Shown here piece by piece: positions 6,282 to 44,433 of a stretch of 64,000 nucleotides of DNA; the stretch's first letter is position 1; each line of letters starts with the position of its first letter. Origin of the DNA: an uncultured Gammaproteobacteria bacterium (GTDB taxonomy: Bacteria > Patescibacteriota > Patescibacteriia > JAHIZJ01). A program made the translations under genes and the position numbers. The DNA lies in assembly GCA_964371245.1 (NCBI GenBank), contig CAYJKP010000001.1, positions 187,042-251,041 on the forward strand, given 5' to 3'. Under the pieces are notes generated by a model that was given only the letters and a program-made list of their open reading frames with translations, was not told where the DNA came from and did no database searches.

Positions 6282-7697
6282 TTAAAACGGCGCCGCTTCC
6301 TCGCTGGTTGGGGAAAATCGTTCGCCGATATCGCTCTCGAAGCAGACGCTGTGCTCATTAAAGCGAAGTTTCACCAGTCCAGTCGGACCGTTGCGATGTT
6401 TGGCGATGTGGACCTCAACCAAATTTGCTTCTTCGGGCCGGATGTCTTCGCGGCGATAATTCCGGTCCATCATCTTGCGGTAAATAAACATGACCACGTC
6501 GGCGTCTTGTTCGATCGAGCCGGATTCACGCAGGTGGGCCAGTTTCGGTATGGCCGGCTTGCTCATTTCCACGGCCCGCGAAAGCTGGGACAAGCCGATG
6601 ACTGGCACTTGAAGCTCGCGGGCGACGGCTTTCAGACCGCGGGTGATTTCGGCCACTTCCTGGACGCGATTATCGGTTAGCCCGCGGCCTTCCATAAGCT
6701 GGAGATAGTCAACGATAATGAGGTCGAGATTTGCTTCAGATTTTAAACGGCGCGCCTTGGTGCGAATTTCCATAACGTTCGCCAGGGGGGAATCATCAAT
6801 GTAGATGTTCGCTTCGGAAAGTTTGCCCATGGCATGGCCGATGGCAGCAAAATCATCGTTTTCACCCTCGGCTGTCAGCCGCCCCGTTCGGAATTTCCAG
6901 AGGCTGATCCGCGCCTCAGAGCAGAGCAGACGGTCAATTAATTGCTCCTTTGACATTTCCAAGCTGAAGATCGCAACTGCAGCCTTATGCTTGATCGCCG
7001 CCAAGCGTGCAAAATCAAGAGCGAGCGAGGTTTTTCCGACTGACGGACGAGCCGCCAAGATAATTAGATCGGATTTTTGAAAGCCGGCGAGTAGGTTGTC
7101 GAGATCGGGAAAGCCGCTCGGCAAGCCCCGCAGCTTGCCGCTTTCGCGGTGGAGCTCGTCCATCCGCTCAAAGGCATCCGTCAGCAATTCTTTGATCGGG
7201 ACGAAATTCTGCTTGAGGTATTTTTGTGAGACGCTGAACAACGACTGCTCGGCTTTATCAAGGATGAAGTCGACTTCATTCTCTTCGTGAAAACCCATGG
7301 AGGCAATTTCAGAAGCCGATTCGATCAGCCGGCGCAAAGTTGCCTTTTTCTGGACCACGTTGGCGTAATGAACAACGTTGCCGGCGGTCGGCACGATATT
7401 CGTCAGGGTTGCCAGGTACGACCGTCCGCCAACTGTCTCCAGCCGTCCCGCTTCTTCAAGCTTGTTCGACAAACTTAGGAGATCGATTGGCTCGCGGCGG
7501 GTGTAGAGATCAAGCATGGCCTCAAAGATGAACCGATGGCTATCGCGGTAAAAATCGGACGGCGAGAGAATATCAGCAATTCTGGTGACAGCTTCTTTGT
7601 CAATCAAAAGCGACCCCAAAACCGCCTGTTCGGCTTCCAGGTTTTGCGGAGGCACTTTTTCTATTGTTGTCTTTTGTGTCGATTGGGATTCAGCCAT
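6282..7697 (-). CDS. dnaB: Replicative DNA helicase DnaB
   Basis: Start chosen at ATG 7697 (MAESQSTQ...NLEAEQAVLGSLL). Walker A GKTSLAL, RecA-like C-domain. The ORF track's 8432 start is a spurious antisense extension through dnaQ. An alternative start is at 7733. Confidence 0.85.
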   Translation of the reverse strand: MAESQSTQKTTIEKVPPQNLEAEQAVLGSLLIDKEAVTRIADILSPSDFYRDSHRFIFEAMLDLYTRREPIDLLSLSNKLEEAGRLETVGGRSYLATLTNIVPTAGNVVHYANVVQKKATLRRLIESASEIASMGFHEENEVDFILDKAEQSLFSVSQKYLKQNFVPIKELLTDAFERMDELHRESGKLRGLPSGFPDLDNLLAGFQKSDLIILAARPSVGKTSLALDFARLAAIKHKAAVAIFSLEMSKEQLIDRLLCSEARISLWKFRTGRLTAEGENDDFAAIGHAMGKLSEANIYIDDSPLANVMEIRTKARRLKSEANLDLIIVDYLQLMEGRGLTDNRVQEVAEITRGLKAVARELQVPVIGLSQLSRAVEMSKPAIPKLAHLRESGSIEQDADVVMFIYRKMMDRNYRREDIRPEEANLVEVHIAKHRNGPTGLVKLRFNEHSVCFESDIGERFSPTSEEAAPF

Positions 7698-7856
7698 ATA
7701 CCCGTCAGTTGGCGTGTTTGTTCGTCCTTCCATAGTAGCCAATGGCGCGAAAAATAGCAAGCCTGCCAAGCGCACAGGATGTTCACGCTTTATCCCCATT
7801 TCTATTGGTCGTTTTGGGCTTGCAGCAACGGAAAAAAACGGGTATACTTTCCCAAT

Positions 7857-8477
7857 ATGCCCAATATGAGCCAGGATGAATTCATTGTCGTCGATGTTGA
7901 AACAACCGGGTTTAAACCGACCGAGGGGCATTGTATTATTGAAATCGCGGCGGAACGGTTGCGCGAGTCGAACGTCGTTGATACCTATCATTCGTTGGTC
8001 ATATCCGAACGATCGATTGATCCGGAGACCGTGCTGATCCACGGGATTACTGAGGAATTGTTGCAATTGGAAGGCCGGCCGGTTCACGAGGTGATGCAAG
8101 AATTTGTTTCGTTTATCAAGGATGCCCCGCTCATCGGCCACAATATCGGATTTGATCTCGCCTTCATCAACGCCCATCTCGAACGATTGAGCCTGCCGCG
8201 GCTGACCAACAAAACAATTGATACGATCGAGCTGGCCAGAAAGTATTTGATTATTCCGAGCTATAGCCTGGAAAAGGTCTCGGCCTATCTGAAAGTACCG
8301 CAACCGTCGGCACATCGCGCGCAAGTCGACGTTGAAGTCACGCGGCAAGTGTTTATAAAACTTAACGAACGGGCGCAGGCGAGGGGAGGCAAAGTCGCTC
8401 CTACCCCGGCACAACCCGGGACAAACCCCCAAAGACCGGTGCCGCCGACTGTACCGCCGCCGACCAGGCTTTTCTAA
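7857..8477 (+). CDS. DnaQ-like 3'-5' exonuclease (DNA pol III epsilon family) with Pro-rich C-terminal tail
   Basis: Exo I motif FIVVDVETTGF, Exo II HNIGFDLAF, Exo III YxxxD region. ATG at 7857 (alternative 7866). The low-complexity tail reads PTPAQPGTNPQRPVPPTVPPPT. Confidence 0.7.
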   Translation: MPNMSQDEFIVVDVETTGFKPTEGHCIIEIAAERLRESNVVDTYHSLVISERSIDPETVLIHGITEELLQLEGRPVHEVMQEFVSFIKDAPLIGHNIGFDLAFINAHLERLSLPRLTNKTIDTIELARKYLIIPSYSLEKVSAYLKVPQPSAHRAQVDVEVTRQVFIKLNERAQARGGKVAPTPAQPGTNPQRPVPPTVPPPTRLF

Positions 8478-8903: not shown

Positions 8904-11591
8904 ATGTCAGAACACGCATGGTACAAATTGCCGCAGGCCAAGATTTTTGAGCTTCTAAAAACCAGGAAGACCGGTTTGACTGATCAGGAAGTTGCGGCGC
9001 GCCAGCGGAAATACGGATCGAATACATTGCCCCAGGACAAACGCGCGACCTGGGTTATTTTATTATTGAAACAATTTCAAAGTTCGCTCATTTATATCCT
9101 TTTATTTGCTGCCGGCGTAAGCTTGCTGCTGAATGATTATGTCGACATGTACGTGATTTTGGCAGCCGTGCTATTAAATGTCATCGTCGGCTTCATTCAG
9201 GAAAATCGGGCGATGAAAGCGATGGATAAGCTGCGCCGAGTCGTGGAATTCAGTACGCTGGTTCTGCGTGACAGCAGGGAGCTGAAGATTAATGTGGCGG
9301 ATTTGGTGCCGGGCGATGTCGTCCTCATTCAACCAGGCGATAAAGTACCGGCTGATGTCAGGCTGATCGAGGCAGAACAGCTGCGTGTTAATGAAGCGCG
9401 GTTGACTGGCGAATCCAACCCAGTCGTGAAATCCACGGAGACGCTCCACAACGAGCTGGTGCTGGCCGATCGTCTGAACATGGCGTTCATGGGCACGGTC
9501 GTTACCGGCGGTGTCGGCCGGGGCGTCGTCTGCGCGATCGGGCTGGAGACGGAAATCGGTCAGATCGCGAAGATGATAAAAGAAACCAAAGAAGAACAAA
9601 CGCCCCTGCAGAAAAAACTCAACAGTCTCAGCAAGTTAATCGGCGGGAGCGTGCTCTTGATCTGCCTGGGCGTTTTCCTGCTTGGCCTGCTGACGGGTCG
9701 CGCCTTCATCGAAATGTTCACCACCTCGGTCGCTATCGCCGTGGCGGCCATCCCCGAAGGTTTAGCGGTGGTGGTGACGGTTATTTTAGCGATCGGCATG
9801 CAGCGGATATTGAAACAACAAGGGCTCGTTCGCAAACTGGTGGCGGCCGAAACCCTGGGTTCCACCACGGTCATCTGCACTGACAAAACCGGAACGCTGA
9901 CTGAAGGGGAAATGCGGGTGGTTCGGGTTATTACGAACAATCATGATTTAGAGGCAACCGGAGACAAATTTAAAACGCACCTAAAAGAAACCGGGGATCA
10001 GACGAGTTTTATTACCGCGCTGAAAATCGGCGTCCTATGCAATGACGCCCACATTGAAAACGAATTCAGCCCGCTGCACGAATGGAAAATATTCGGCAAC
10101 CCGACGGAAAAGGCGCTCATCCTGGCTGGCAGCGAGGTCGGGCTGAGTCGTCATGTTTTGGAAAAAATACATCCGCGCCTGGCCGAGATACCGTTCAATT
10201 CAGAGCGGAAGTATATGGTCACGCTCCAGGGCTGGTCAAAAACGCACCACCTCATCTACATAAAAGGCGCACCAGAAAAAATACTCGAGATGTCCTGGCG
10301 GATCGACGTCGATGGCCAGATCGAACAGTTGACGCCTCAACAACGCGAAAAAATTAAAAAGCGCTTTGAGCATCTAAGTAATGAAGGGCTGAGAATCATC
10401 GCCCTGGCCTTTAAATCCACTTCGGCTGAAACGGCAGAATTAAAAGAAGCGCCCGGCCTGCTTGAGGATTTTGTTTTTGCCGGATTGATGGGCATCCAGG
10501 ATCCACTCCGGCCGGAAGCGAAAGAAACGATACGGCAGTGTAAGGAAGCCGGTATTGGAATCGCGATGATTACCGGTGATCATCGCTTGACCGCCCAATC
10601 AATCGCTCGTGAGCTGGGTTTGCCGTCAAAGATGGAGAACATCCTGCAAGGCGATGAGCTGGCCAAAATGAACGCGACACAGCTGCAGAAACGCGTCAAA
10701 AAGGTGTCCGTCTACGCTCGGGTGACGCCAAAAGACAAGCTGCGCATCGTTGACGCGCTCCAGGCCAATGGTGAGGTTGTCGCAATGACGGGGGACGGTT
10801 TGAACGACGCCCCAGCGCTGCGCTCCGCCGATATCGGCGTTTCGCTTGGTTCGGGAACTGACATTGCCAAAGAAACCGCCAACCTCGTTATTCTCGATAA
10901 TAATTTCAAAACGATTGTCGCCGCCGTCCGGCAGGGGCGCGTGCTTTTTGAAAACATCAAAAAAGTAGTGCTCTACCTCATGTCGGACAGTTTTTCTGAG
11001 GTGATCATTATAACTGGAGCGTTAGTGTTGGGCATACCGCTGCCGCTCGTGGCGGCGCAGATACTTTGGATCAATTTGGTTGGCGATGGCCTGCCGAACA
11101 TGGCGCTGACGGTTGAACCGGAGGAGCGTCACATCATGCAGGAATCACCGATTCGTCGGAATGCTCCGATCCTCGACACAGAAATGAAAACATTGGTTGC
11201 TGTCATCAGCGCTGTTACCGGCCTGGTCACGCTCGGCCTCTTTTACTATTTCTGGAAATCAACCGGCGATCTGTCGTTGGCCCGGACGATTGCCTTTACT
11301 TCCGTCGGCATTGACTCGCTGATATACGTCTTCAGCTGCCGTTCACTGCGGATACCAATCATAAAGAAAAATCCGTTTTCAAATCCCTGGCTGGTTTATG
11401 CCGTGATTGGTGGCATCATACTTCAAATTGCCGCCATCTATTTTGGGCCGTTGCAGAATGTTTTACGAACAGTACCGTTGACGCTTGACCATTGGCTGGT
11501 CATTGGCACGGCCGTTATATTTGTCATCCTGCTCATCGAAGTGATAAAATATTTATTCTTACACCAAAAAAAATTCCATGCGGCGCAATAA
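8904..11591 (+). CDS. P-type cation-transporting ATPase (P2-type, Ca2+/cation pump-like)
   Basis: 895 aa. DKTGTLT phosphorylation motif, TGDHRLTA, GDGLNDAPAL, 10 predicted TMs. Confidence 0.9.
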   Translation: MSEHAWYKLPQAKIFELLKTRKTGLTDQEVAARQRKYGSNTLPQDKRATWVILLLKQFQSSLIYILLFAAGVSLLLNDYVDMYVILAAVLLNVIVGFIQENRAMKAMDKLRRVVEFSTLVLRDSRELKINVADLVPGDVVLIQPGDKVPADVRLIEAEQLRVNEARLTGESNPVVKSTETLHNELVLADRLNMAFMGTVVTGGVGRGVVCAIGLETEIGQIAKMIKETKEEQTPLQKKLNSLSKLIGGSVLLICLGVFLLGLLTGRAFIEMFTTSVAIAVAAIPEGLAVVVTVILAIGMQRILKQQGLVRKLVAAETLGSTTVICTDKTGTLTEGEMRVVRVITNNHDLEATGDKFKTHLKETGDQTSFITALKIGVLCNDAHIENEFSPLHEWKIFGNPTEKALILAGSEVGLSRHVLEKIHPRLAEIPFNSERKYMVTLQGWSKTHHLIYIKGAPEKILEMSWRIDVDGQIEQLTPQQREKIKKRFEHLSNEGLRIIALAFKSTSAETAELKEAPGLLEDFVFAGLMGIQDPLRPEAKETIRQCKEAGIGIAMITGDHRLTAQSIARELGLPSKMENILQGDELAKMNATQLQKRVKKVSVYARVTPKDKLRIVDALQANGEVVAMTGDGLNDAPALRSADIGVSLGSGTDIAKETANLVILDNNFKTIVAAVRQGRVLFENIKKVVLYLMSDSFSEVIIITGALVLGIPLPLVAAQILWINLVGDGLPNMALTVEPEERHIMQESPIRRNAPILDTEMKTLVAVISAVTGLVTLGLFYYFWKSTGDLSLARTIAFTSVGIDSLIYVFSCRSLRIPIIKKNPFSNPWLVYAVIGGIILQIAAIYFGPLQNVLRTVPLTLDHWLVIGTAVIFVILLIEVIKYLFLHQKKFHAAQ

Positions 11592-12174
11592 TGTTTTGAC
11601 AGCCATTGCCTTCGTGTCGCTCGCGGTTTTACTCGTGGTCGAGCTTGGCACGCATTATGATAGTTGGGATCGTCAAGTGGCCCTCTCGATTACAAATATC
11701 ATCGGCGGCGGCGTTTATTTATTGATCTATTATTTCCTGAAACGGCGCGGCATCACGTTGCCGTGGATAGCGGCCTGGCTGGTCGCCCTGGGTATCTGGT
11801 TCGACGCGCTTGGGAATTTTCAGCACTTTTTCGGTCGGATCCTCTGGTGGGACAAGCTCGCGCATTTTACCGGCTCATTGCCCCCGGCCACGGTCTTTTG
11901 GGCGGTCCTGTATGGGTTTGGAAAAAAGGGGACGATCCGACTGCCAAATTGGCTAACCGGTATATTTGCCGTTTGTCTGACAGTAACGCTGTCGGTGGTA
12001 TACGAAATATCTGAATATATCGGTGACCTGAACTTTCCGACCCATCGGATAACGGATTTATACGATACGGTTGATGATTTAATGTATAATTTATTAGGCG
12101 CCGTCGCCGTGGTGATCATTTGTCTGCTTATTTATCGAAAGAAACAGAAAAACGACCGCCAAACGAGCGTTTGA
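11578..12174 (+). CDS. Hypothetical polytopic membrane protein
   Basis: 198 aa with 5-6 hydrophobic segments. Overlaps the ATPase stop by 14 nt. No confident family assignment. Confidence 0.5.
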   Translation: MRRNNVLTAIAFVSLAVLLVVELGTHYDSWDRQVALSITNIIGGGVYLLIYYFLKRRGITLPWIAAWLVALGIWFDALGNFQHFFGRILWWDKLAHFTGSLPPATVFWAVLYGFGKKGTIRLPNWLTGIFAVCLTVTLSVVYEISEYIGDLNFPTHRITDLYDTVDDLMYNLLGAVAVVIICLLIYRKKQKNDRQTSV

Positions 12175-13538: not shown

Positions 13539-14951
13539 ATGACACGCATTACCACAATTCAGTCACTCGAACGCATTGGCGAAAAGGCGACCTTGGCCGG
13601 CTGGGCTGAAACGGTTCGCAAACTCGGAAAAATTTTATTTATCGACCTGCGCGATAAGGACGGACACTTGCAAATCGTCTGCTCGCCCGAACAAAGCGCG
13701 CTCTATGAAACGGCCAAGAGCATTCGGCCGGAGTATGTCATTCGCGTCACTGGCCGGATCGCCAAACGGGCTGAAAAGAACGTAAACAAAAAACAGCCGA
13801 CTGGTACGATCGAGCTTCAGCCCGAGCAGCTTGAAATATTAAGCACCTCGCTGACGCCGCCGTTTGAAATCGACAACGAGATCCGGCAGGCGTCGGAAGA
13901 GCTGCGCTTGAAATACCGCTATCTCGATCTACGGCATGAACGCATGCGCCGCAATTTGCGGATGCGTTCCGATATGCTGTGGTTTCTCCGCAATTGGCTG
14001 CACGAGCGCGGTTTTACCGAAATTCAGACGCCGATACTCTCAAAATCCACGCCGGAAGGGGCGCGCGATTTTCTCGTCCCGTCACGGCTTCAGAAAGGGA
14101 GATTCTTCGCCTTACCACAATCGCCCCAGCAGTACAAACAGCTCTTAATGGTTGCCGGCATTGAAAAATATTTTCAGATCGCTCCCTGTTTCCGTGATGA
14201 AGACGCCCGCGCCGACCGCAGTCCGGGCGAGTTCTACCAGCTTGATATCGAGTTGTCATTCATCAACCAGGAAGAAATACTGCAACTAACCGAGGAAATG
14301 TTTACCCAGATGGTGACGAAGATATTCCCTGAAAAACACATCATGACGACGCCGTGGCCGCGCTTGCGCCACGCCGAGGTGATGAAAAAATACGGGACGG
14401 ACAAACCCGATCTTCGCCAGAACAAAGAGGATAACAACGAACTCGCCTTTGCCTGGGTGATTGATTTTCCGCTGTTTACCAGACAGACGAAAGACGATTA
14501 TTTCTACGGGGCCGGCGACAAACTCGCGCCCTCTCACCACATGTTTACGGCGCCGAGAGAAGAGGATATCCCGCTGCTCGAGACCGCGCCGGAAAAAGTC
14601 CGCGCCTACCAGCACGACCTAGTCCTCAACGGGATCGAGGTCGGCGGCGGCAGCATCAGAATACACCGGCCGGAAATTCAAGAAAAAGTGTTTGACCTGA
14701 TCGGCTTTACCAAAGACCAGAAAAAACTGTTTAAACACCTGATGACAGCGTTCCAATATGGCGTACCGCCGCACGGTGGAATCGCCCCCGGCATTGAGCG
14801 TCTGCTCATGGCCATACTAGGTGAGAAAAATGTAAAAGAGGTAGCCGCTTTTCCGCTGACGAGCGAAGGCCGCGATCCGATGATGGATTCTCCATCCCGA
14901 GTTACCCCGGCGCAGCTGCGCGACCTCGGCTTGCGGCTTGATAAAAACTAA
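13539..14951 (+). CDS. aspS: Aspartyl-tRNA synthetase, short form lacking the GAD insertion domain
   Basis: 470 aa. CFRDEDARADRSPGEFYQLDIELSF and LVLNGIEVGGGSIRIH are bacterial AspRS signatures. It is about 120 aa shorter than typical bacterial AspRS. Confidence 0.8.
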   Translation: MTRITTIQSLERIGEKATLAGWAETVRKLGKILFIDLRDKDGHLQIVCSPEQSALYETAKSIRPEYVIRVTGRIAKRAEKNVNKKQPTGTIELQPEQLEILSTSLTPPFEIDNEIRQASEELRLKYRYLDLRHERMRRNLRMRSDMLWFLRNWLHERGFTEIQTPILSKSTPEGARDFLVPSRLQKGRFFALPQSPQQYKQLLMVAGIEKYFQIAPCFRDEDARADRSPGEFYQLDIELSFINQEEILQLTEEMFTQMVTKIFPEKHIMTTPWPRLRHAEVMKKYGTDKPDLRQNKEDNNELAFAWVIDFPLFTRQTKDDYFYGAGDKLAPSHHMFTAPREEDIPLLETAPEKVRAYQHDLVLNGIEVGGGSIRIHRPEIQEKVFDLIGFTKDQKKLFKHLMTAFQYGVPPHGGIAPGIERLLMAILGEKNVKEVAAFPLTSEGRDPMMDSPSRVTPAQLRDLGLRLDKN

Positions 14952-15276
14952 TATGCGCCTGTCACCGCTCCAAAAATATATCCTGCTCGAAGTCTACACT
15001 AGCCGAGTGCAGCTTTTTCCGCGGTCGGTTATTACGAAATACTACTTTTCCCAAACGCGACCGCCGAAGCTTGGCGATATGCAAAACATCGTGACGAAGA
15101 GCCTCGAACGGCTGATTGATAAAGAGCTGCTGACCGGTTATGGGCATCGGACGCCGCATAAATGGTTTATCAGCGAGGTGAAACTCACGCCGCTGGGTCG
15201 GCGGACAGCCAAACGGCTCCAGGGCGAACAGCAAACCCTGCCCTTACGACTCGCGAAAAGAAAGGTTAACAATTAA
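14938..15276 (+). CDS. Hypothetical small basic protein (possible winged-helix DNA-binding)
   Basis: 112 aa with a likely start at internal Met 14953. No recognisable motif. Overlaps the aspS end. Confidence 0.35.
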   Translation: MIKTNMRLSPLQKYILLEVYTSRVQLFPRSVITKYYFSQTRPPKLGDMQNIVTKSLERLIDKELLTGYGHRTPHKWFISEVKLTPLGRRTAKRLQGEQQTLPLRLAKRKVNN

Positions 15277-19628: not shown

Positions 19629-20117
19629 ATGAAAAAAATTGGTGGATTTACACTTATCGAGTTACTGGTAGTGATTGCGATTATCGGTTTAATTTCGAGT
19701 ATGTCGTTGATAGTACTTCGGGGCAAGGTTAGTGCCGCCCGTGATGCCAAGCGACGGGCGGACATAGCGACCCTGCAGACGGCGCTGGCTTTATATGAGG
19801 CTGATCATCAGAGATTTCCGGGGACAGGCGGTTGCGTCATAATAGATGGCCACTGGGTATGCTCGGTCGACCAAGTCGCCTGGTTCGTGCCGAATTTGGC
19901 TGAGTATATGACGCCGTCCCCGCCACAAGATCCGGGGCACCATAAAATCAGTAGTTGGAATACCTATGGCTATATTCCATTACCAGTGATGAACCATGCC
20001 TATGCGCTGTTTTTTATGTTGGAAGGCGGACCGCAAGAGGATTATTGTAATATTGGACCTATTTCACTCGTTGAAGGAGACCCGCCTGTTGTCTGGTCAA
20101 CGCGTTGTCCAGATTAA
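19629..20117 (+). CDS. Type IV pilin-like protein, paralog 1 (prepilin class III signal)
   Basis: MKKIGG/FTLIELLVVIAIIGLI is a prepilin peptidase site with E+5. Four Cys. C-terminal WSTRCPD. Confidence 0.75.
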   Translation: MKKIGGFTLIELLVVIAIIGLISSMSLIVLRGKVSAARDAKRRADIATLQTALALYEADHQRFPGTGGCVIIDGHWVCSVDQVAWFVPNLAEYMTPSPPQDPGHHKISSWNTYGYIPLPVMNHAYALFFMLEGGPQEDYCNIGPISLVEGDPPVVWSTRCPD

Positions 20118-20135
20118 TCCGGGAAGCGCCCACTA

Positions 20136-20633
20136 ATGAAAAAAACAAAAGGTTTTACTCTGATTGAGCTCCTCGTCGTCATCGCTATTATCGGTTTAAT
20201 TTCGAGCATGTCGTTGATCGTTCTTCGGGGCAAGGTGATGGCTGCCCGCGATGCCAAGAGACGGGCTGACATTGCCACGTTACAATCCGCGCTCGAGGTG
20301 TATAATTTTGACAAACAGCGCTATCCTGAACAAACATGGTGCGCTTGGCTGCCGAGCGGCCACTGGGTTTGCATAATCGATGAAATAAGCAATGACCTGC
20401 CTGATTTAGATGATTATATTAAACCGAACCCGCCTTCAGACCCAGGCCACCATAAGATTGCGGATTGGAATATGTATGGGTATATACCGAATCCAAATCC
20501 AAATCATGTGTATGCCCTTTTATTTATGCTTGAGCAAGGGCCCCAAGAAGACATGTGCAACATCGGACCCATAGATATCATTGATGATGGCATGAACGAT
20601 CCAATTATCTGGTCCACGCGTTGTCCCGATTAG
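20136..20633 (+). CDS. Type IV pilin-like protein, paralog 2
   Basis: The same N-terminal 50 aa as paralog 1 and a divergent C-terminal domain with conserved PSPPxDPGHH, FMLExGPQEDxCN, WSTRCPD. Confidence 0.75.
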   Translation: MKKTKGFTLIELLVVIAIIGLISSMSLIVLRGKVMAARDAKRRADIATLQSALEVYNFDKQRYPEQTWCAWLPSGHWVCIIDEISNDLPDLDDYIKPNPPSDPGHHKIADWNMYGYIPNPNPNHVYALLFMLEQGPQEDMCNIGPIDIIDDGMNDPIIWSTRCPD

Positions 20634-20650
20634 TCATAAGTCGTACCCAT

Positions 20651-21175
20651 ATGAAAAAAACAAACGGTTTTACGCTGATTGAACTCCTCGTCGTTATTGC
20701 GATTATTGGGCTTATTTCAACAATGACTCTCGTTGTACTCCGAGGAAAAGTATTAGCTGCCCGCGATGTCAAGCGACGGGCTGACATCGCCACCCTCCAG
20801 ACCGCCATCGCCGTCTACTATTCTGATAGAGATATATATCCTCCGCCGACTGTCCAAGGTGGGCCAGACGATTGTACGCTAAACTTTATTAATAATCACA
20901 ACATGTATTTATGTGCGGTCTATGAGGAATCGTGGTTTCTTCCGACACTTTCCAGTTACATGACACCCTCGCCGCCAGAAGACCCGGGGCATCACTCCCG
21001 TCCCAGCTACGACGGTTACCGGTATATTCCCGACGCCTATGATCAAACCGGTCGGTACCGTGGCTATGTCTTGTTCTTTATGCTTGAGCAGGAGCCCCAA
21101 GAAGACATGTGCAATATGGGCCCGATGAATTTTGGAGATGGGGTGGTAACGTGGTCAACGCGCTGTCCTGATTAA
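20651..21175 (+). CDS. Type IV pilin-like protein, paralog 3
   Basis: ATG at 20651 (MKKTNG/FTLIELLVV). The ORF track's 20621 start is an extension. The same conserved C-terminus as paralogs 1 and 2. Confidence 0.75.
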   Translation: MKKTNGFTLIELLVVIAIIGLISTMTLVVLRGKVLAARDVKRRADIATLQTAIAVYYSDRDIYPPPTVQGGPDDCTLNFINNHNMYLCAVYEESWFLPTLSSYMTPSPPEDPGHHSRPSYDGYRYIPDAYDQTGRYRGYVLFFMLEQEPQEDMCNMGPMNFGDGVVTWSTRCPD

Positions 21176-22349: not shown

Positions 22350-22424
22350 GCCGCTATCGTCTAGTGGCTAGGACGCCAGGTTCTCATCCTGGTAACCGGG
22401 GTTCGACTCCCCGTAGCGGTACCA
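22350..22424 (+). tRNA. tRNA-Glu (anticodon CTC), CCA encoded
   Basis: 75 nt. Acceptor gccgcta/tagcggt, anticodon loop ttCTCat, T-loop ttcgact. Preceded by a TATAAT-like box. Confidence 0.85.
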
Positions 22425-22433
22425 GATGTTTAT

Positions 22434-23879
22434 ATGCTCGGAAAAAGATATTTTTCGTTACTAGTTCTCGCCGGCTTTCTGTGTCTGACGTTTCTCGTCC
22501 ATTTCAGAGTATTGAGGGTGTACTTTTTATCTGACGACTTTGGCTATGTCCTGTTGGCCCGTGATACCTCAGTGTCCGAGAGTATCAGCTTAATAACAAA
22601 GGAACAAAAACTTGGCTCGGGAACCGGGCTATATCGACCGATGGTTGATATAGCTTTTGTTTTTGCTTACCAGTTCTTCAAGGAAAATCCGGCCGGCTAC
22701 CATGCCACCAGCCTCATATTTCACGCGCTGATCGCCTGGCTTTTTTACCTGCTTATCTCAAGGATGAGCCACAACAAGGGGCTGGCTTTTTTAGCCGGCG
22801 CGTTTTTTATCGTTTACCCGATGAACATTGAAAGCATTGCCTGGCTGTCTAATTGGACCACACTGATATCCAGTTTGTTTATCATGTTGGCCATCTATCT
22901 GTATTGGGAATATCGCATTACAAAACAAATATATTTATTTTTCATTTCCCTATTAGCCATACTGTTTTCCCTTCTTGCCAAAGAGACCGCAATTATCATG
23001 CCCCTGGTTTTGATTGCGCTTGATCTGATGAGGAGCAAATTAAATGGCCAGACGGCGAAGAAAGTGTTTAGAAACTGGCTCAGTTATGCGGCCAGTATTG
23101 TGTTAATTGGACTGTTTTTTGCCTGGCGGTTTATCATGCTCAAAGGCCGGGGCGGTTATCGAACCTCCGATGGTGAATCCATTTACGGCAGTTTGACACA
23201 CAATGAAGTCATTACATTTCTCACCACCATAAAATATTTTCTGTTTAATTATCTGAACGATGTGGTTTTCCGCTTTCAAAACCGGCTAGCAATAATCTAT
23301 TGGTCAGTTTTTGCCGCTGTGCTTGTTCTGGCGGTATTGTACCTGGTGAACAAAAGGAAAAATATAAAATATTTCTGGCTGTTATTCGGCCTTGGCTGGA
23401 TTTACATTTTTACTTTGCCGGTTATCAATCTTTTAAACGGCATACACCGGGACTTATCCGGCTCGCGCTTTTTATATCTGCCAGGCTTGGGATTTTGCCT
23501 GCTGCTAGCGGTGCTGGTTTTGGATTTTAATAATCGTCCGGGAAAAATGCTTACATACGCCAAAGGGGCTGCGGTTGGGTTGTTTATTGTGGGTTTCAGC
23601 TTTTTGTCTTATAAAAACCAGGTGCCGTGGCTGGAAGCTTCGGCCCAGGTCCGGGCCGTCGGCGATAAAGTGCAGGCCAGCGTTAAAGACCCGCCGAGGA
23701 AGGCCGAATTTTATTTTAAAAATTTACCGGATAATTGGGCGGGCGCGTATTCTTTGCGCAACGGCATAGAAAACTATCTGCTGCTTTTGTACGACAAATC
23801 GCCCAGATACCTGACTGCGAAAAGGGTAGAGGAGTTTCCAGTGCAGAAGAGCGGAAAAAGCATGTATTTCTTTGATTAG
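22434..23879 (+). CDS. Polytopic membrane protein, putative GT-C glycosyltransferase (PMT/ArnT-like)
   Basis: 481 aa with more than 10 TMs. DD motif in the first periplasmic loop (LSDDFGY). Starts 10 nt after the tRNA-Glu 3' end. Family call is tentative. Confidence 0.45.
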   Translation: MLGKRYFSLLVLAGFLCLTFLVHFRVLRVYFLSDDFGYVLLARDTSVSESISLITKEQKLGSGTGLYRPMVDIAFVFAYQFFKENPAGYHATSLIFHALIAWLFYLLISRMSHNKGLAFLAGAFFIVYPMNIESIAWLSNWTTLISSLFIMLAIYLYWEYRITKQIYLFFISLLAILFSLLAKETAIIMPLVLIALDLMRSKLNGQTAKKVFRNWLSYAASIVLIGLFFAWRFIMLKGRGGYRTSDGESIYGSLTHNEVITFLTTIKYFLFNYLNDVVFRFQNRLAIIYWSVFAAVLVLAVLYLVNKRKNIKYFWLLFGLGWIYIFTLPVINLLNGIHRDLSGSRFLYLPGLGFCLLLAVLVLDFNNRPGKMLTYAKGAAVGLFIVGFSFLSYKNQVPWLEASAQVRAVGDKVQASVKDPPRKAEFYFKNLPDNWAGAYSLRNGIENYLLLLYDKSPRYLTAKRVEEFPVQKSGKSMYFFD

Positions 23880-23982
23880 CGGCTAATTATGCTTTGAATA
23901 ATCGTGATAAAGACGGCAATCGAATATCGAACTAAACATAATCCAAACCAACTATGCCCGATCAAACAATAAAACCCACTGG

Positions 23983-24435
23983 TTGCTACGACCCGTTCGA
24001 TCCAGCGCCGTGGAGGAAAAAGAAATTACCTGGAACGACAAACAATTCGTCAAAGACCACATCACGAGCCTATTTCACATTCCTATGAACATGGGCAAGA
24101 AAATCGTCAAGAACATGGCCCTGATCGAAAAAGCGGGCGCGAAGGCAAGTTATCAATTAATGCTAACGGACGAGAAATCGCTCTGGGGTTCGGATATTTA
24201 TATTGATGTAACGAAACCAGTGTCCGGCGCTCAGATGAATACTGTTTCCGGAACATTTCTCACCAAAGTATTCGAGGGCCCTTATAAAAACGCCGGCAAG
24301 TGGGCCGGAGAAATGAAAACATACGTTCAGTCAAAAGGGAAGACAATAAAGAAACTTTATTTCTCATATACGACTTGTCCCAAATGCGCCAAGGCGTATG
24401 GCAAGAATTACGTCGTGCTTTTTGCGCAGGTGTAA
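23983..24435 (+). CDS. Hypothetical protein (TTG start in track; possible frameshifted gene with the ATG 23954 frame)
   Basis: 150-aa ORF without a good RBS. An upstream 43-codon ATG frame at 23954 sits in the +1 register across an A5 run. Confidence 0.35.
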   Translation: MLRPVRSSAVEEKEITWNDKQFVKDHITSLFHIPMNMGKKIVKNMALIEKAGAKASYQLMLTDEKSLWGSDIYIDVTKPVSGAQMNTVSGTFLTKVFEGPYKNAGKWAGEMKTYVQSKGKTIKKLYFSYTTCPKCAKAYGKNYVVLFAQV

Positions 24436-24508
24436 CGGGTTGGTACTATTGTCGATATAATTTTCAATAAAAGTTGTCTCTTTCAAACAAAGGGAGGCTT
24501 TTTACGTC

Positions 24509-24561
24509 TTGACAAAAATCATATATTCGTGTACCATCTTTAAGTCCTATAAATGTAGGAC
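24509..24561 (+). promoter_or_regulatory. Promoter TTGACA-17-TACCAT plus palindromic operator-like site GTCCTA-N6-TAGGAC at predicted +1
   Basis: TTGACA at 24509-24514, TACCAT at 24532-24537, perfect 6-bp inverted repeat at 24544-24561. A UUCG-loop hairpin and a GGAGGG SD follow. Confidence 0.5.
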
Positions 24562-24614
24562 GTTTTCACTCCTGCTTCGGCAGGGAGGTCGAACCACGCG
24601 GTGTAGGAGGGTTC

Positions 24615-25619
24615 ATGGGAGACAACGGGGGAAATCCACGTATCTTTGTCAGCGACCTGATCGGATCGCTCGAAGAAGCGTATGGCAGCCCGATCAAGGA
24701 GCTGGACCGCCAGCGGGAAGAGGGCCTTCGACTCGAAGGCAACGTTCCCGTCGGCAAGGTCATGCGGGCGCTCGTTCAAGCGCTCCGTCTCGTGTCAGGG
24801 CCGGCGGCCACGATTGATCGCGATCGGAGGCCCAACAGCAGCGATGAGCTGGTTCAGCTCATCATCGACCTGGCCATCGAGGCCAACTCGGACGACGCCG
24901 AACCGGCCGAAATCGACGTCACGATCGCCTATCTCGTCGGGTTGTTGGACATTTTCTACCGGGATCGCGATCCGGAGGGCCTCATACCGTACGCGGCCTA
25001 TCGGTCGAAGTTGCTCTGTAACCGACTGCTTGATGGGCGTATGGACGCCCGGCATCCACCGAAGGCCGACGAGATCGACGACATCGCCGAGCTTGGCGCC
25101 AGATACGGAGCCGAAGCGATGTCGGCCAATCCGGACGACTGGACCGCCTTCGTTCCGAGCACACCGCGCCAGGTGCGTCTCGCGGTGAAGATGGACGCCG
25201 GCGTCACGGACACGGAGTGGAGCGAGCTGCTCCAGCGGCTGGTCGCAAGGTCCGCAGGTGACCGGAAGTTCACCAGGACGGATGAAGAGGTCTTCGCCGA
25301 GCTGGACACCATGAGACATCAGGCCGAGGAGCGGCGGAAGCTCGAAGAGGAGCTGCCCGCGCTGCTGCGGCCGGCGCTGGCCAGGCTCGGTCTCCCCGAG
25401 GAGGCGGCTCTGAGCGTCAAGGTGAGTGGTCAGTTAGGAAGTCTCACGGCGCAGCGGTACACCGTCGAGCTGAGTCCGTCAGGCTGCCCGCACGGATGTT
25501 TCGGCATCACCGTCCATAGCCACGAGGCGCAGAAGAACCAACTGATGGGCGGTCTCAGGTCGATGTTGAGCCGCATCTTCGGCGGAAACATCGATGAGGT
25601 CGAAACGATCAGGCTCTAG
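24615..25619 (+). CDS. Hypothetical acidic protein encoded by a GC-anomalous (about 64-66% GC) gene
   Basis: 334 aa. SD GGAGGG 5 nt upstream of the ATG. Composition is much higher in GC than the flanking genes. Many overlapping shadow ORFs on both strands are typical of high-GC DNA. No motif recognised. Confidence 0.6.
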   Translation: MGDNGGNPRIFVSDLIGSLEEAYGSPIKELDRQREEGLRLEGNVPVGKVMRALVQALRLVSGPAATIDRDRRPNSSDELVQLIIDLAIEANSDDAEPAEIDVTIAYLVGLLDIFYRDRDPEGLIPYAAYRSKLLCNRLLDGRMDARHPPKADEIDDIAELGARYGAEAMSANPDDWTAFVPSTPRQVRLAVKMDAGVTDTEWSELLQRLVARSAGDRKFTRTDEEVFAELDTMRHQAEERRKLEEELPALLRPALARLGLPEEAALSVKVSGQLGSLTAQRYTVELSPSGCPHGCFGITVHSHEAQKNQLMGGLRSMLSRIFGGNIDEVETIRL

Positions 25620-25641
25620 TCAGGAGGGATCGTACACAAAA

Positions 25642-25681
25642 GCCCCGCATTGCCTTCAAGGCAGTGGCGGGGTATTTTCTT
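25642..25681 (+). terminator. Intrinsic terminator (gccccgcattgcc-ttcaa-ggcagtggcgggg + T-rich)
   Basis: 12-13 bp imperfect stem followed by tattttctt. Confidence 0.55.
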
Positions 25682-25877
25682 ACTCAAGCATCCTTACATA
25701 CAATTGATGTGGCCCATCTTAGGCACATTTCAAATATATAAAGAAAAGCTGAAAAATCAATTAATTTTACATGACGTTGCGGATAAACGGTCGTGGTAAA
25801 AAAACGGCCACGTTTACCCAAAGGGTAAAATCAGCTACAATAAAGGGGTTGTTTTTATTTACTTCACACGAACGATT

Positions 25878-27064: not shown

Positions 27065-27093
27065 TTGACACCCCTTTTTTGTTGGGGTATTCT
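27065..27093 (+). promoter_or_regulatory. Promoter TTGACA-17-TATTCT of the hrcA operon; the preceding gggg-loop-cccc + T6 may also terminate the GT1 gene
   Basis: TTGACA at 27065-27070, TATTCT at 27088-27093. Confidence 0.5.
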
Positions 27094-27097
27094 AGAC

Positions 27098-27124
27098 TTA
27101 GCACTCGATGAAATAGAGTGCTAA
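27098..27124 (+). promoter_or_regulatory. CIRCE element (HrcA operator) TTAGCACTC-N9-GAGTGCTAA
   Basis: Perfect match to the CIRCE consensus, located between the -10 box and the hrcA ATG. Confidence 0.9.
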
Positions 27125-31195: not shown

Positions 31196-31510
31196 ATGCC
31201 CAACCAACCCCAACCCAACCAACAGCCAAACTCCCGCCAGATCCAGATCAAGGTCACGGATGACGTGATGCGCGGTGTGTACGCGAACGCGATGTCCGTG
31301 GTACACTCAAAGGAGGAATTCACGCTCGACTTCATGAACATCTACCCGCACCAGGGCGCCGGGATCGTGACCGGCCGGATGATTATTTCACCGGGACACA
31401 TGAAGCGCATCCAGGCCGCGCTCCAGGACAATATCAAGAAATACGAGAACCAATTCGGCAAGATCGAGGAAGCCCAGGCGCCCGAACCGATGGGTTTCAA
31501 GACCGCCTAA
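31196..31510 (+). CDS. Hypothetical small protein within the heat-shock cluster
   Basis: 104 aa with a Pro/Gln/Asn-rich N-terminus. No motif. Confidence 0.45.
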   Translation: MPNQPQPNQQPNSRQIQIKVTDDVMRGVYANAMSVVHSKEEFTLDFMNIYPHQGAGIVTGRMIISPGHMKRIQAALQDNIKKYENQFGKIEEAQAPEPMGFKTA

Positions 31511-40639: not shown

Positions 40640-41188
40640 TCATGGCTCTGTCAGACCACAGTTCGTGGCCTGGAGCTTCACCGGGATCAGGAACCGTTGG
40701 ACGATCCGTTCCTCCGGCGGAGTCGGTCCGCTGGACGGCTGGTACGTGGCGACCAGCTCAATCTGCCGATAGCCATCATAGTGATTCGGCACGTCGAACC
40801 CGAAGCCTTGGCCGAACTTCCGATTGTTGATGCGCTTGACTTTCATCCAACGCTTCGGCTCGTCCGAGAAGCGCCACTCGATGGATTCCACCCGGTTGCC
40901 ATAGGTGTAGGCGGGGAGGAAGCCAAACGTCAAGTAGGCGGCGTTCGTGTTGACCTGTTCGGCCAACCAAGTAGTCTCGACGGCGGTTGAGTCGACCTCG
41001 AGTTTTATGCGGTAGAACCGCTTCAACTGGAGGTCGTTCATGACATAGAGCGCCGGATTCTCGCGGCACTCGGCGCCGATGTAGTTGACCGTCACGCTAC
41101 GCGGCGTCTTCACCACGTAACACGTGCAGCCATTCCCGACGGCGAGGACCGTCGCCAGCAGACAGAGAACGAGCAACGTCCGGTACAT
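40640..41188 (-). CDS. Hypothetical secreted Cys-containing protein (about 58% GC)
   Basis: 182 aa. N-terminal signal peptide (MYRTLLVLCLLATVLAVGNGC). GC3-rich codon usage. Confidence 0.45.
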   Translation of the reverse strand: MYRTLLVLCLLATVLAVGNGCTCYVVKTPRSVTVNYIGAECRENPALYVMNDLQLKRFYRIKLEVDSTAVETTWLAEQVNTNAAYLTFGFLPAYTYGNRVESIEWRFSDEPKRWMKVKRINNRKFGQGFGFDVPNHYDGYRQIELVATYQPSSGPTPPEERIVQRFLIPVKLQATNCGLTEP

Positions 41189-41883: not shown

Positions 41884-44433
41884 ATGGTTTGGCTTTTGGC
41901 TGCGACAGTCAGTCTGCCCGAGGCAACAGCGGTGATCGAGAGTGAGACCGGCGGTAACTTACTGGTGACCGTGTTTGTGTTGCTAGGGATCGTGGCGCTT
42001 GTGATAGCGCTTTTTTCCATATTCCGCTGGGCCATGAATAATACCATGCTTATCCCGATGGCTTTCCGGCGAAAAGTCCTGATGATCTCAGTGCCGAAGG
42101 AGCACATGGAGCTCCAGGAGCAACAGGACAAGCACAAAGGGAACGTCAAAGAATTGATTGCCGTTGCTGAGGCGCTCTATGCGAATCTCGGCGGTATTGT
42201 CCGGATGCAAAAATGGTATTCGCGGCTGCTCTACGGCCGGCACGATCATCTCGCCCTGGAAATCGTGGCCGATAAGGGCTTTGTCTCATTTATTGTGGCG
42301 ATACCGTTTCAATATCATGAATTCATCGAGCAGCAGATTCACGCCCAATATCCGGAAGCCCACGTCGAAGCAATGGAGGATTATAATATATTTTCTTCGC
42401 ACGGCGTCATCAAGATGAACAATCTGAAATTGTCGCGCTCAAACATGTATCCGATTCGAACCTATCAGAAACTGGAAGTTGACCCAATGAACGCTATTAC
42501 GAACGTCTTGAGCAAGATCACGGAGCCGGAAGGGGCCGCCATCCAAATACTCTTTCGACGGGCCGGCCGGGGTTGGCAGCACGCCGCCCACTCATACGCG
42601 CGCAAGGTGATTCAGGGGAAGGGCGGTCAGGCCGGTTCAGGCGCCATGATGGGGGATCTGTGGCACTCGGCGTTTCCGAGTAAGATGCAGGATCAGAACG
42701 AACAGCAAAAAAAGAATTTTTACAAACTGTCGCCGATCGAAGAGGGTAAAATGAAGGCGGTCAGCGAAAAGGCAGAGAAAATCGGCTTTGAGGTTAATCT
42801 GCGGGTCATTGTTTCGGCGGGTGATGCCGATCGGGCCAAGATTTATATGGATAATATTTTAAATTCGTTTACGCAGTACACCGCCCATGAAACGGGTAAC
42901 AGTTTCCGAAAAGCCAAGGTCTATCTGAAACATCGGTTCATCCACGATTTCATCTTCCGGAATTTCCGCCGCCGGAACAGCTTCATCCTGAATACCGAGG
43001 AGCTAACCAGCCTATGGCACTTGCCGTTGTCTGACACGGAAACGCCGAATATCCGCTGGGCCGCGGCCAAACGCTCAGCCCCGCCCGTTGATTTGCCGAA
43101 CGAAGGGCTGATCCTCGGCCAGAGCAGCTACCGCGGCCGCGATCTACTCGTTCGGATAAAGAAAGACGATCGGCGACGCCATGTCTACATCATTGGTAAA
43201 TCCGGCGTCGGTAAATCAGTTTTGATGACGAACATGGCGGTTCAGGACATAAAAAACGGCGAGGGCGTTTGCGTTGTTGATCCGCACGGCGATTTGATTG
43301 AAGACATCCTCGGACAGATTCCAAAAGAACGCAGCGACGACGTCATTATTTTTGATCCGTCCGATACTGAACGGCCGGTTGGCTTGAACATGCTCGAAGC
43401 GCAGACGCCGATGGATCGGGATTTCGCCGTACAAGAAATGATCAGCATTTTCTACAAGCTTTTCCCGCCGGAAATGATCGGGCCGATGTTCGAGCATAAC
43501 ATGCGCAACGTCATGCTGACGCTGATGGCGGACACGGTCCAGCCCGGCACGATCGTTGAAATTCCGCGCATGTTCACCGATCCGGAATACCAGAAATTCA
43601 AACTTCGCAAGGTGACCGACCCGGTGGTGCGGAATTTCTGGGAAAAAGAGATGGCCAAGACGACCGATTTTCATAAGTCAGAGATGCTCGGCTATCTCAT
43701 TTCAAAAGTCGGCCGTTTCGTCGAGAACGAAATGATGCGGAATATTATCGGCCAATCGCGCTCCGGCTTCGATTTTGAAGAAATCATGAACAAGCGGAAA
43801 ATTTTGCTCGTCAATCTGTCGAAAGGCAAGACCGGCGAGGTCAACAGCTCGCTGCTCGGCTTGATCATCGTTTCAAAGCTCCAGATGGCGGCGTTGCATC
43901 GGGCGAATCTGCCGTCGGAGGAAAGACATGACTTCTATCTCTACATCGACGAATTTCAGAATTTTGTGACCGACAGTGTGGCCACCATCTTGTCTGAAGC
44001 CAGAAAGTATCGTTTGAATCTCATTATTGCACATCAATATATCAACCAGTTGGTTCAAAACAACGACACCAAGATACGCGACGCGGTCCTCGGCAACGCC
44101 GGGACGATTATCTCGTTCAAAGTCGGCGTCGAGGACTCTCAAATGGTGTCAAAAATATACGCGCCGGTCTTTAATGAGTTTGACGTGATGAATATCGAAA
44201 AATATAACGCCTACGTCAAGCTCTTGATCGACAATCAAACCGGTCGAGCCTTCAATATGCAGACGGTTGCGCCGCTGCCGGGCGACCGGGCGCTGGCGCA
44301 ACGGATCAAGGAGTTGTCGCGGCTGAAACACGGGCGCGAAAAGAAGGTTGTGGAGACGGAAATAATGGAACGGAGCCAGCTGGGCGCGCCGGCTGCCCGT
44401 CTTGGTGACACTGTTGGGGAACGGCACATGTAG
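41884..44433 (+). CDS. VirD4/TraG/TraD-like type IV coupling protein-family P-loop ATPase with N-terminal TMs
   Basis: 849 aa with 2 N-terminal TMs. Walker A IIGKSGVGKS, VVDPHGDL, Walker B-like LYIDEFQNF, and a C-terminal segment resembling the TraD/TraG relaxosome-binding region. Confidence 0.55.
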   Translation: MVWLLAATVSLPEATAVIESETGGNLLVTVFVLLGIVALVIALFSIFRWAMNNTMLIPMAFRRKVLMISVPKEHMELQEQQDKHKGNVKELIAVAEALYANLGGIVRMQKWYSRLLYGRHDHLALEIVADKGFVSFIVAIPFQYHEFIEQQIHAQYPEAHVEAMEDYNIFSSHGVIKMNNLKLSRSNMYPIRTYQKLEVDPMNAITNVLSKITEPEGAAIQILFRRAGRGWQHAAHSYARKVIQGKGGQAGSGAMMGDLWHSAFPSKMQDQNEQQKKNFYKLSPIEEGKMKAVSEKAEKIGFEVNLRVIVSAGDADRAKIYMDNILNSFTQYTAHETGNSFRKAKVYLKHRFIHDFIFRNFRRRNSFILNTEELTSLWHLPLSDTETPNIRWAAAKRSAPPVDLPNEGLILGQSSYRGRDLLVRIKKDDRRRHVYIIGKSGVGKSVLMTNMAVQDIKNGEGVCVVDPHGDLIEDILGQIPKERSDDVIIFDPSDTERPVGLNMLEAQTPMDRDFAVQEMISIFYKLFPPEMIGPMFEHNMRNVMLTLMADTVQPGTIVEIPRMFTDPEYQKFKLRKVTDPVVRNFWEKEMAKTTDFHKSEMLGYLISKVGRFVENEMMRNIIGQSRSGFDFEEIMNKRKILLVNLSKGKTGEVNSSLLGLIIVSKLQMAALHRANLPSEERHDFYLYIDEFQNFVTDSVATILSEARKYRLNLIIAHQYINQLVQNNDTKIRDAVLGNAGTIISFKVGVEDSQMVSKIYAPVFNEFDVMNIEKYNAYVKLLIDNQTGRAFNMQTVAPLPGDRALAQRIKELSRLKHGREKKVVETEIMERSQLGAPAARLGDTVGERHM

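Follow-up and report, generated by a model that had tools for sequence, protein, structure and literature searches.

The 64,000-nucleotide stretch analysed here (contig CAYJKP010000001.1 of assembly GCA_964371245.1, positions 187,042 to 251,041; hereafter the window) carries, at 24615-25619 on the forward strand, a GC-rich orphan gene enclosed by its own predicted promoter and terminator. Gene content of the window matches that of an ultra-small Patescibacteria (Candidate Phyla Radiation, CPR) chromosome, and the local gene order comprises GAPDH, tRNA-Glu(CTC), a 481-aa membrane protein, a PF20603 'Bact_hydrolase', the GC-rich gene, a GT4 glycosyltransferase (GT4), hrcA, grpE, hsp20 and dnaK. 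The elements that make up the locus, in window coordinates, are as follows.

22350-22424, forward strand: tRNA-Glu(CTC), the proximal edge of a variable segment extending over 22425-25877 (ARAGORN and Rfam).
23879-25805, no strand: 1,927-bp insertion/deletion (indel) relative to the closest relative, L009, holding the PF20603 hydrolase gene (23983-24435) and the GC-rich cassette (blastn and junction alignment).
24476-24503, forward strand: terminator-like hairpin and T-run that close the upstream hydrolase gene and part it from the cassette (pattern scan; predicted fold of -7.7 kcal/mol).
24509-24537, forward strand: sigma-70-type promoter TTGACA-17-TACCAT, matching the consensus at 10 of 12 positions (pattern scan).
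24544-24561, forward strand: exact inverted repeat GTCCTA-N6-TAGGAC at the predicted 5' end of the transcript, occurring once in the window (pattern scan).
24570-24588, forward strand: predicted hairpin with a cUUCGg loop, of unremarkable stability (fold; z-score of -1.3).
24605-24611, forward strand: Shine-Dalgarno (SD) sequence AGGAGGG, read off the sequence, in which GGAGGG (24606-24611) is followed by TTC and the ATG at 24615.
24615-25619, forward strand: coding sequence of a 334-aa acidic, soluble protein, member of an orphan family (open reading frame, composition and homologues).
25642-25681, forward strand: predicted intrinsic terminator, preceded by an A-tract and followed by a U-tract (hairpin 25642-25673 plus U-run; -24 kcal/mol, z-score of -4.4).

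The open reading frame (ORF) at 24615-25619 displays an overall GC content of 63.2%, with values at the three codon positions (GC1, GC2 and GC3) of 0.675, 0.436 and 0.785. It presents the highest GC content among the 61 non-overlapping long ORFs of the window (mean of the others 0.513, maximum 0.594), and its GC3 lies 2.9 standard deviations above the mean of the window (0.598 ± 0.065). GC content in sliding 200-nt windows is 0.40-0.41 over the upstream spacer, reaches 0.61-0.685 within the ORF and falls to 0.375-0.42 just downstream. A first-pass annotation of this DNA, made from its letters only, had put the gene at 64-66% GC against 50-55% for its neighbours; the anomaly is real, although the figures were slightly off, since the adjacent hydrolase and GT4 genes have 45% and 55% GC, respectively. 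The stack of shadow ORFs that it had described over the gene is also present and comprises seven frames, each 60 aa or longer, distributed over both strands. After normalisation for GC content, the dinucleotide deviation delta* at the gene is 0.216, which ranks first among 252 windows of 1 kb (mean 0.073, standard deviation 0.028; z-score of ~5).

Two further genes of the window reach a GC3 of 0.81, namely 31196-31510, which encodes a DUF3467 protein next to dnaK, and 40640-41188 on the reverse strand, which encodes a predicted lipoprotein, while the DnaK gene has a GC3 of 0.715. Thus, genes of this genome that are probably more strongly expressed have a higher GC3, and high expression was a serious rival explanation for the GC3 excess of the orphan gene. 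According to this explanation a native gene is expressed at a very high level, translational selection in favour of codons ending in G or C raises its GC3, and its absence from the sister genome is a loss. The DnaK, GAPDH and DUF3467 genes indeed prefer C- and G-ending codons relative to the window average, and the orphan ORF does likewise at most two-fold amino acids. However, its codon adaptation index (CAI) is 0.688, placing it 25th of 60, whereas the lipoprotein gene of similar GC3 ranks 3rd and the DUF3467 gene 4th. Eight of its 31 arginine codons (26%) are AGG or AGA, compared with 0% in DnaK, GAPDH and DUF3467, and its use of AGC and GGA also runs counter to the preference of these three genes. 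The CAI reference comprised DnaK, GAPDH, GrpE, Hsp20, TIM, FBA and DnaJ, a small set of stress and glycolysis genes lacking ribosomal proteins because the window holds no ribosomal protein genes, and the test is therefore suggestive rather than final. With this small reference, codon usage of the ORF fails to match that of the putative highly expressed host genes, and its mediocre adaptation suggests a foreign origin over a high-expression bias. The top-ranking dinucleotide signature argues in the same direction, as does the protein itself, which contains 31 arginines and 9 lysines in its 334 residues, while the remaining proteins of the window have approximately equal numbers of both. Together with the high GC1, this excess of arginine suggests a GC-rich heritage that is visible in the amino-acid sequence as well.

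The closest species representative found was 'Patescibacteria group bacterium SO_2017_LW4_167' (L009), whose locus presents 88-92% nucleotide identity to the window in the flanks and 98% and 99% amino-acid identity in GT4 and HrcA, respectively. In L009, 68 bp replace the 1,927 bp of the window, with blastn blocks ending at 23878 and 25806, and a 110-aa ORF and the 481-aa protein lie between tRNA-Glu and GT4. Two more distant relatives have other genes here: L010 (GT4 64% identical) preserves the GAPDH-tRNA-Glu and GT4-hrcA-grpE frame with DUF134 and YibE/F genes in between, and L024 (GT4 69% identical) has unrelated ORFs and a DUF559 endonuclease-like gene ahead of GT4. The interval from tRNA-Glu(CTC) to GT4-hrcA corresponds to 22425-25877 in the window, 8067-10000 in L009 and 7462-10000 in L010. 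This conserved frame, filled differently from one relative to another, identifies the stretch 3' of tRNA-Glu as a hot spot of gene turnover. Among the four genomes compared (the window and these three relatives), the orphan gene is specific to the lineage of the window; neither it nor the hydrolase gene had a tblastn match in the L009, L010 and L024 loci, which for L009 covered 21 kb. The absence from orthologous loci that the first-pass annotation had left to be checked was therefore observed in all three relatives. The 1-kb island that it had delimited is not the unit demonstrated by this comparison, as the indel extends over 1.93 kb and includes the low-GC PF20603 hydrolase gene.

The hydrolase belongs to a family of 6,351 clusters whose top matches are 74-83% identical, and it is common and well conserved in Patescibacteria, elsewhere in unrelated contexts. 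The two genes of the indel may have arrived jointly or separately, or may have been jointly deleted in L009. The 918-kb metagenomic contig L001 is 100% identical to the window across the 21-kb locus compared, and the protein also occurs on a contig of 1.18 Mb. The other contigs bearing the orphan gene belong to the same strain (identity of at least 99.7%), with the gene invariant in all those compared, and thus provide no population-level information on its presence or absence. One sample's assembly (L005, positions 841-885) carries a 15-bp in-frame deletion, corresponding to 24414-24428 of the window, which removes five residues at the C-terminus of the hydrolase. The 481-aa membrane protein gene at 22434-23879 has a weak PTPS_related match and 44% GC, forms the second most deviant dinucleotide region and shows ~80% nucleotide identity to L009, compared with 88-92% for the flanks. 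Two candidate readings of the segment were rejected. A weak likeness between GATAAAGACGG and GATAAACGG at its two edges, considered as an att site or direct repeat, was within chance. An integron cassette was discarded on inspection by eye, the downstream hairpin lacking attC-like R and L boxes and the cassette having its own promoter.

An exhaustive HMMER search of 1.84 billion cluster representatives revealed seven full-length homologues of the 334-aa protein (317-345 aa, 23-35% identity, E-values of 4e-8 to 1e-3), the best matched stretches of which span 230-325 of the 334 residues of the query. The best foreign homologue is 29% identical, and the orphan family amounts to eight clusters among the 1.84 billion. 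The protein is thus not a unique ORFan or singleton and represents a previously unnamed protein family. The sequences align over their whole length, sharing the motifs AYLL..LH, F(F/L)PST..Q.R, R(T)D.E(V/F) and LRPAL..LGLP, and Pro-181, Gln-186 and Gly-259 are invariant. Contigs of the homologues hold housekeeping genes of small genomes, including PGK, enolase, DnaJ and an aminoacyl-tRNA synthetase (tRNA-synt_1b); one homologue carries a Patescibacteria source label, and contig L020 shares membrane-protein and DnaJ synteny with the window. The family gene lies at a different locus in nearly every genome. In L021 (GCA_040960375.1), three paralogues are found within 5 kb (10001-10984, 11162-12145 and 13957-14955), two of them in tandem. 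They are only 23-29% identical to one another, and each has its own promoter, its own leader hairpin and, by eye, a terminator-like hairpin downstream. Between two syntenic genomes, identity is 27% for the family proteins, compared with 79% for enolase and 56% for PGK, which implies fast evolution or replacement of copies. The family is old but sparse, with several distinct lineages, all of them seen to date in Patescibacteria-like contigs only, and is no de novo ORF.

Members of the family share compositional traits and an arrangement of expression signals. All are acidic (isoelectric point, pI, of 4.5-6.0), without transmembrane segments and with more arginine than lysine, as illustrated by a member from a 41%-GC host that contains 24 arginines and 6 lysines. 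The GC content of every member compared exceeds that of the remainder of its own contig, by 3.5-15 points. Within their respective loci, six of nine rank first as dinucleotide outliers, while members in contigs of ~59% GC are not outliers. These observations suggest GC-richer Patescibacteria as the usual home of the family, from which it is exported to GC-poorer ones. All ten family genes are preceded by a (c)TTGACA box, which in three copies differs at the sixth base, and a TAnnnT box, with a spacer of 17 nt (18 nt in one). The predicted leaders measure 45-78 nt and contain GGAGG as Shine-Dalgarno sequence. Downstream of the members, a GC-rich inverted repeat and a T-run were recognised by eye.

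Taken together, the data point, with reasonable confidence, to a self-contained monocistronic cassette that the Patescibacteria chromosome gained horizontally, in the variable segment 3' of tRNA-Glu, after the split from its closest sequenced relative, the most likely source being a GC-richer Patescibacterium of ~58-60% GC. Absence from the locus in relatives, the dinucleotide outlier, the non-optimal codons and the excess of arginine over lysine all support what the first-pass annotation had proposed, a recently acquired and separately expressed gene from a GC-richer source. Most of the gene transfers detected in Patescibacteria originate from other Patescibacteria (PMC12455944). Several observations weigh against this interpretation. 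A word-indexed search of 5.8 billion proteins returned self-matches and a fragment only, with no near-identical donor copy, and donor and timing are therefore read from composition only. Searches for an integrase, a transposase, an att repeat or a convincing target duplication flanking the segment were negative, and tRNA-derived or flanking direct repeats did not exceed chance, although a tRNA-Glu lies 2.2 kb upstream. The indel also holds the 45%-GC hydrolase gene widespread in Patescibacteria, and L009 may have undergone one deletion, or two events may have occurred separately. GC3 within the family follows host GC3 loosely, and strong promoters and Shine-Dalgarno sequences accompany all members, so that selection for expression could contribute to the GC3 excess. 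The transcription start site and every RNA structure are, in addition, predicted.

Part of this evidence also speaks for the native, highly expressed gene introduced above, in particular the near-consensus promoter and strong Shine-Dalgarno sequence of all family members, the rough agreement between family and host GC3 and the co-absence of a common Patescibacteria hydrolase gene, which fits a deletion in L009. In contrast, the family occupies different loci in different genomes, and the middling CAI, the opposing codon choices, the dinucleotide signature and the arginine-rich composition described above are poorly accounted for by translational selection. A native origin is thus considered unlikely.

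The expression signals of the cassette are largely those that the first-pass annotation had listed. The pattern TTGACA-N17-TANNNT occurs at six sites in the window against 0.47 expected and therefore marks real promoters in this organism, supporting the TTGACA-17-TACCAT promoter at 24509-24537. The terminator and the UUCG-loop hairpin are likewise present, the latter without exceptional stability, and the ribosome-binding site is strong, although the spacer between GGAGGG and ATG is 3 nt and not the 5 nt proposed. The CUCCUGC arm of the UUCG hairpin is complementary both to a local GCAGGGAG and to the true Shine-Dalgarno sequence. In the minimum free energy fold of the predicted 71-nt leader, CUCCUGC pairs with the Shine-Dalgarno region, while in a 95-nt fold the local UUCG hairpin forms instead. 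Folding of the whole leader did not significantly exceed that of shuffled sequences (z-scores of -1.6 and -0.9). Since neither this value nor that of the UUCG hairpin is significant, an anti-Shine-Dalgarno switch stays speculative, and control of translation by the CU-rich leader stretches is only a possibility. A sensitive Rfam scan of 24380-25800 revealed no leader match, the only hit being a sub-threshold chance match within the coding sequence.

The inverted repeat at 24544-24561, which the first-pass annotation had described as operator-like, is exact and lies at the predicted start of transcription, beginning 6 nt past the -10 box. As RNA it folds into a 7-bp hairpin of -8.8 kcal/mol (z-score of -6.3), and the GUUUUC directly 3' of it might possibly provide weak attenuation. 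An alternative function is that of a DNA operator, bound by a repressor that keeps the acquired gene off, akin to the CIRCE/HrcA system located 2.5 kb downstream. In its favour, the 6 + 6 inverted repeat is perfect and its position close behind the -10 box is paralleled within the same window by hrcA, where a perfect CIRCE (TTAGCACTC-N9-GAGTGCTAA, 27098-27124) begins 4 nt past the -10 box of a consensus promoter (27065-27093), upstream of hrcA-grpE-hsp20-dnaK. No further CIRCE was detected in the window when up to three mismatches were allowed. However, the palindrome is not a CIRCE element, it occurs only once in 64 kb, and neither the cassette nor the indel contains a regulator gene that could supply the repressor the first-pass annotation had suggested looking for. 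The first 30 nt of the ten predicted leaders fold more stably than shuffled sequences (mean z-score of -2.2; seven of ten at p<=0.04), and position-equivalent 5' hairpins are found in most homologues with unrelated sequences, even among the three paralogues of L021. As position is retained and sequence is not, a role at the RNA level, in 5'-end protection or leader architecture, fits better than a common operator. The palindrome thus more probably represents a hairpin at the 5' terminus of the mRNA, and a function as an operator bound by a repressor appears improbable.

The 334-aa protein has a pI of 4.9 and is predicted to be soluble. AlphaFold2 (AF2), supplied with the alignment of eight sequences, gave a model with a mean predicted local distance difference test (pLDDT) score of 73.7 and a predicted template-modelling (pTM) score of 0.61, compared with a pLDDT of 42 from the single sequence. 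The model comprises a helical body over residues 10-270, with block-mean pLDDT values of ~60-93 and a long helix extending from residue 223 to 257, followed by a β-rich C-terminal part (residues 271-334) of lower pLDDT (38-54). The protein is thus predicted to be mostly α-helical with a small C-terminal β-rich part. Structural similarity searches with Foldseek against PDB and BFVD revealed no fold match at E<=1e-3. No member of the family has a sequence match in Pfam, NCBIfam or PHROGs, and no sequence match was found in PDB, in agreement with the first-pass annotation, which had recognised no motif in this acidic protein. PADLOC assigned none of ten members to a known anti-phage defence system, and neither three IMG/VR scans nor tblastn against INPHARED and PLSDB identified viral or plasmid relatives. 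That the long ORF is merely a by-product of GC-rich non-coding or degraded DNA, an idea to which the seven overlapping frames typical of such DNA and the very small number of homologues might lend colour, can be dismissed as extremely unlikely in view of seven homologues of like length with shared AYLL..LH, FPST..Q.R and LRPAL..LGLP motifs, the pronounced codon-position pattern of GC, the gain in model confidence brought by the alignment, and the promoter and Shine-Dalgarno sequence conserved ahead of the ORF in every member, downstream of which terminator-like hairpins were recognised by eye.

These elements can be assembled into a mode of expression for the cassette. Transcription would start at the near-consensus sigma-70 promoter, and the stable stem-loop formed by the palindrome would open the transcript, its most likely role being to protect or structure the 5' end of the mRNA and not to bind a repressor. 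The stem-loop would be followed by a leader of ~70 nt with CU-rich anti-Shine-Dalgarno stretches that may pair with the strong Shine-Dalgarno sequence, and transcription would end at the strong intrinsic terminator.

Patescibacteria have genomes of ~1 Mb that are strongly streamlined. An accessory gene gained and kept with a full set of strong expression signals is therefore probably useful to its host. The protein is patchily distributed, fast-diverging, occasionally multi-copy, predicted to be autonomously and strongly expressed, and cytoplasmic, a pattern like that of genes of conflict or interaction. An accessory protein of genetic conflict, or of host or phage interaction, is proposed with low confidence and from this evolutionary pattern only. 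A bolder and rather doubtful extension would see here a new kind of self-contained promoter-to-terminator cassette, circulating among Patescibacteria without recognisable mobility genes and encoding a rapidly diversifying cytoplasmic protein of novel fold, kept GC-rich and strongly expressed in every host. Such a protein could, for example, serve these ultra-small episymbionts specifically as a new factor of defence or anti-defence, or as an effector of symbiosis. That an orphan gene is gained horizontally at a variable locus is nothing out of the ordinary; it is the family without detectable fold relatives that gives the case moderate interest. Across lineages its members display a common signature, being GC-richer than the host, with arginine well above lysine, fast-diverging, sometimes multi-copy, and monocistronic with a consensus promoter. 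The family is a reasonable candidate for structural and functional follow-up in a group where most lineage-specific biology is obscure.

Other regions of the window present features of their own. The lipoprotein gene at 40640-41188 on the reverse strand stands alone and encodes a predicted 182-aa protein with a signal peptide and a GNGC lipobox, 59% GC and no Pfam match; it is preceded by a TTGACA-17-TATTAT promoter (41277-41249), a leader of ~50 nt and a GGAGGG Shine-Dalgarno sequence. The gene at 41884-44433 (forward strand), which ranks 5th for CAI, encodes an 849-aa chromosomal protein with ATPase domains of type IV secretion coupling proteins (VirD4, TraG, TrwB). A 716-aa DnaB helicase is encoded at 6282-8432 on the reverse strand, its DnaB N-terminal domain starting at residue 261 behind an N-terminal extension of ~260 aa. 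Three tandem N-methyl (type IV pilin-like) genes at 19629-21175 are mutual paralogues with ~68-72% nucleotide identity, and L009 has two longer versions in their place.

Acquired DNA is usually AT-richer than its host, and the orphan cassette differs from this rule in being GC-richer. In other respects it resembles the transferred genes and small islands described in Patescibacteria (Gios et al. 2025, PMC12455944), with which it shares an atypical composition, absence from close relatives, a tRNA-adjacent variable segment and a probable Patescibacteria donor, although the cassette carries no mobility genes or att repeats and consists of one gene with its own full expression signals. Similar to taxonomically restricted (orphan) families, the protein family has no Pfam, NCBIfam or PDB relatives and diverges fast. 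In contrast to such families it is not species-specific, extending over several lineages at 23-35% identity, and a helical model is predicted for it with confidence. At the level of regulation, the palindrome at 24544-24561 is comparable to the CIRCE/HrcA operator as an inverted repeat located directly downstream of a sigma-70 -10 box. It differs in its unrelated sequence, its 6-bp rather than 9-bp arms, its 6-nt rather than 9-nt spacer, its single occurrence and its lack of a link to HrcA. Stabiliser stem-loops at the 5' terminus of bacterial mRNAs are represented by the ompA and aprE leaders of E. coli and B. subtilis, respectively. The predicted arrangement in the orphan family is similar to these, in that a monocistronic and presumably strongly expressed mRNA would carry a stable hairpin at its predicted +1 or very close to it, with structure maintained in the absence of sequence conservation.

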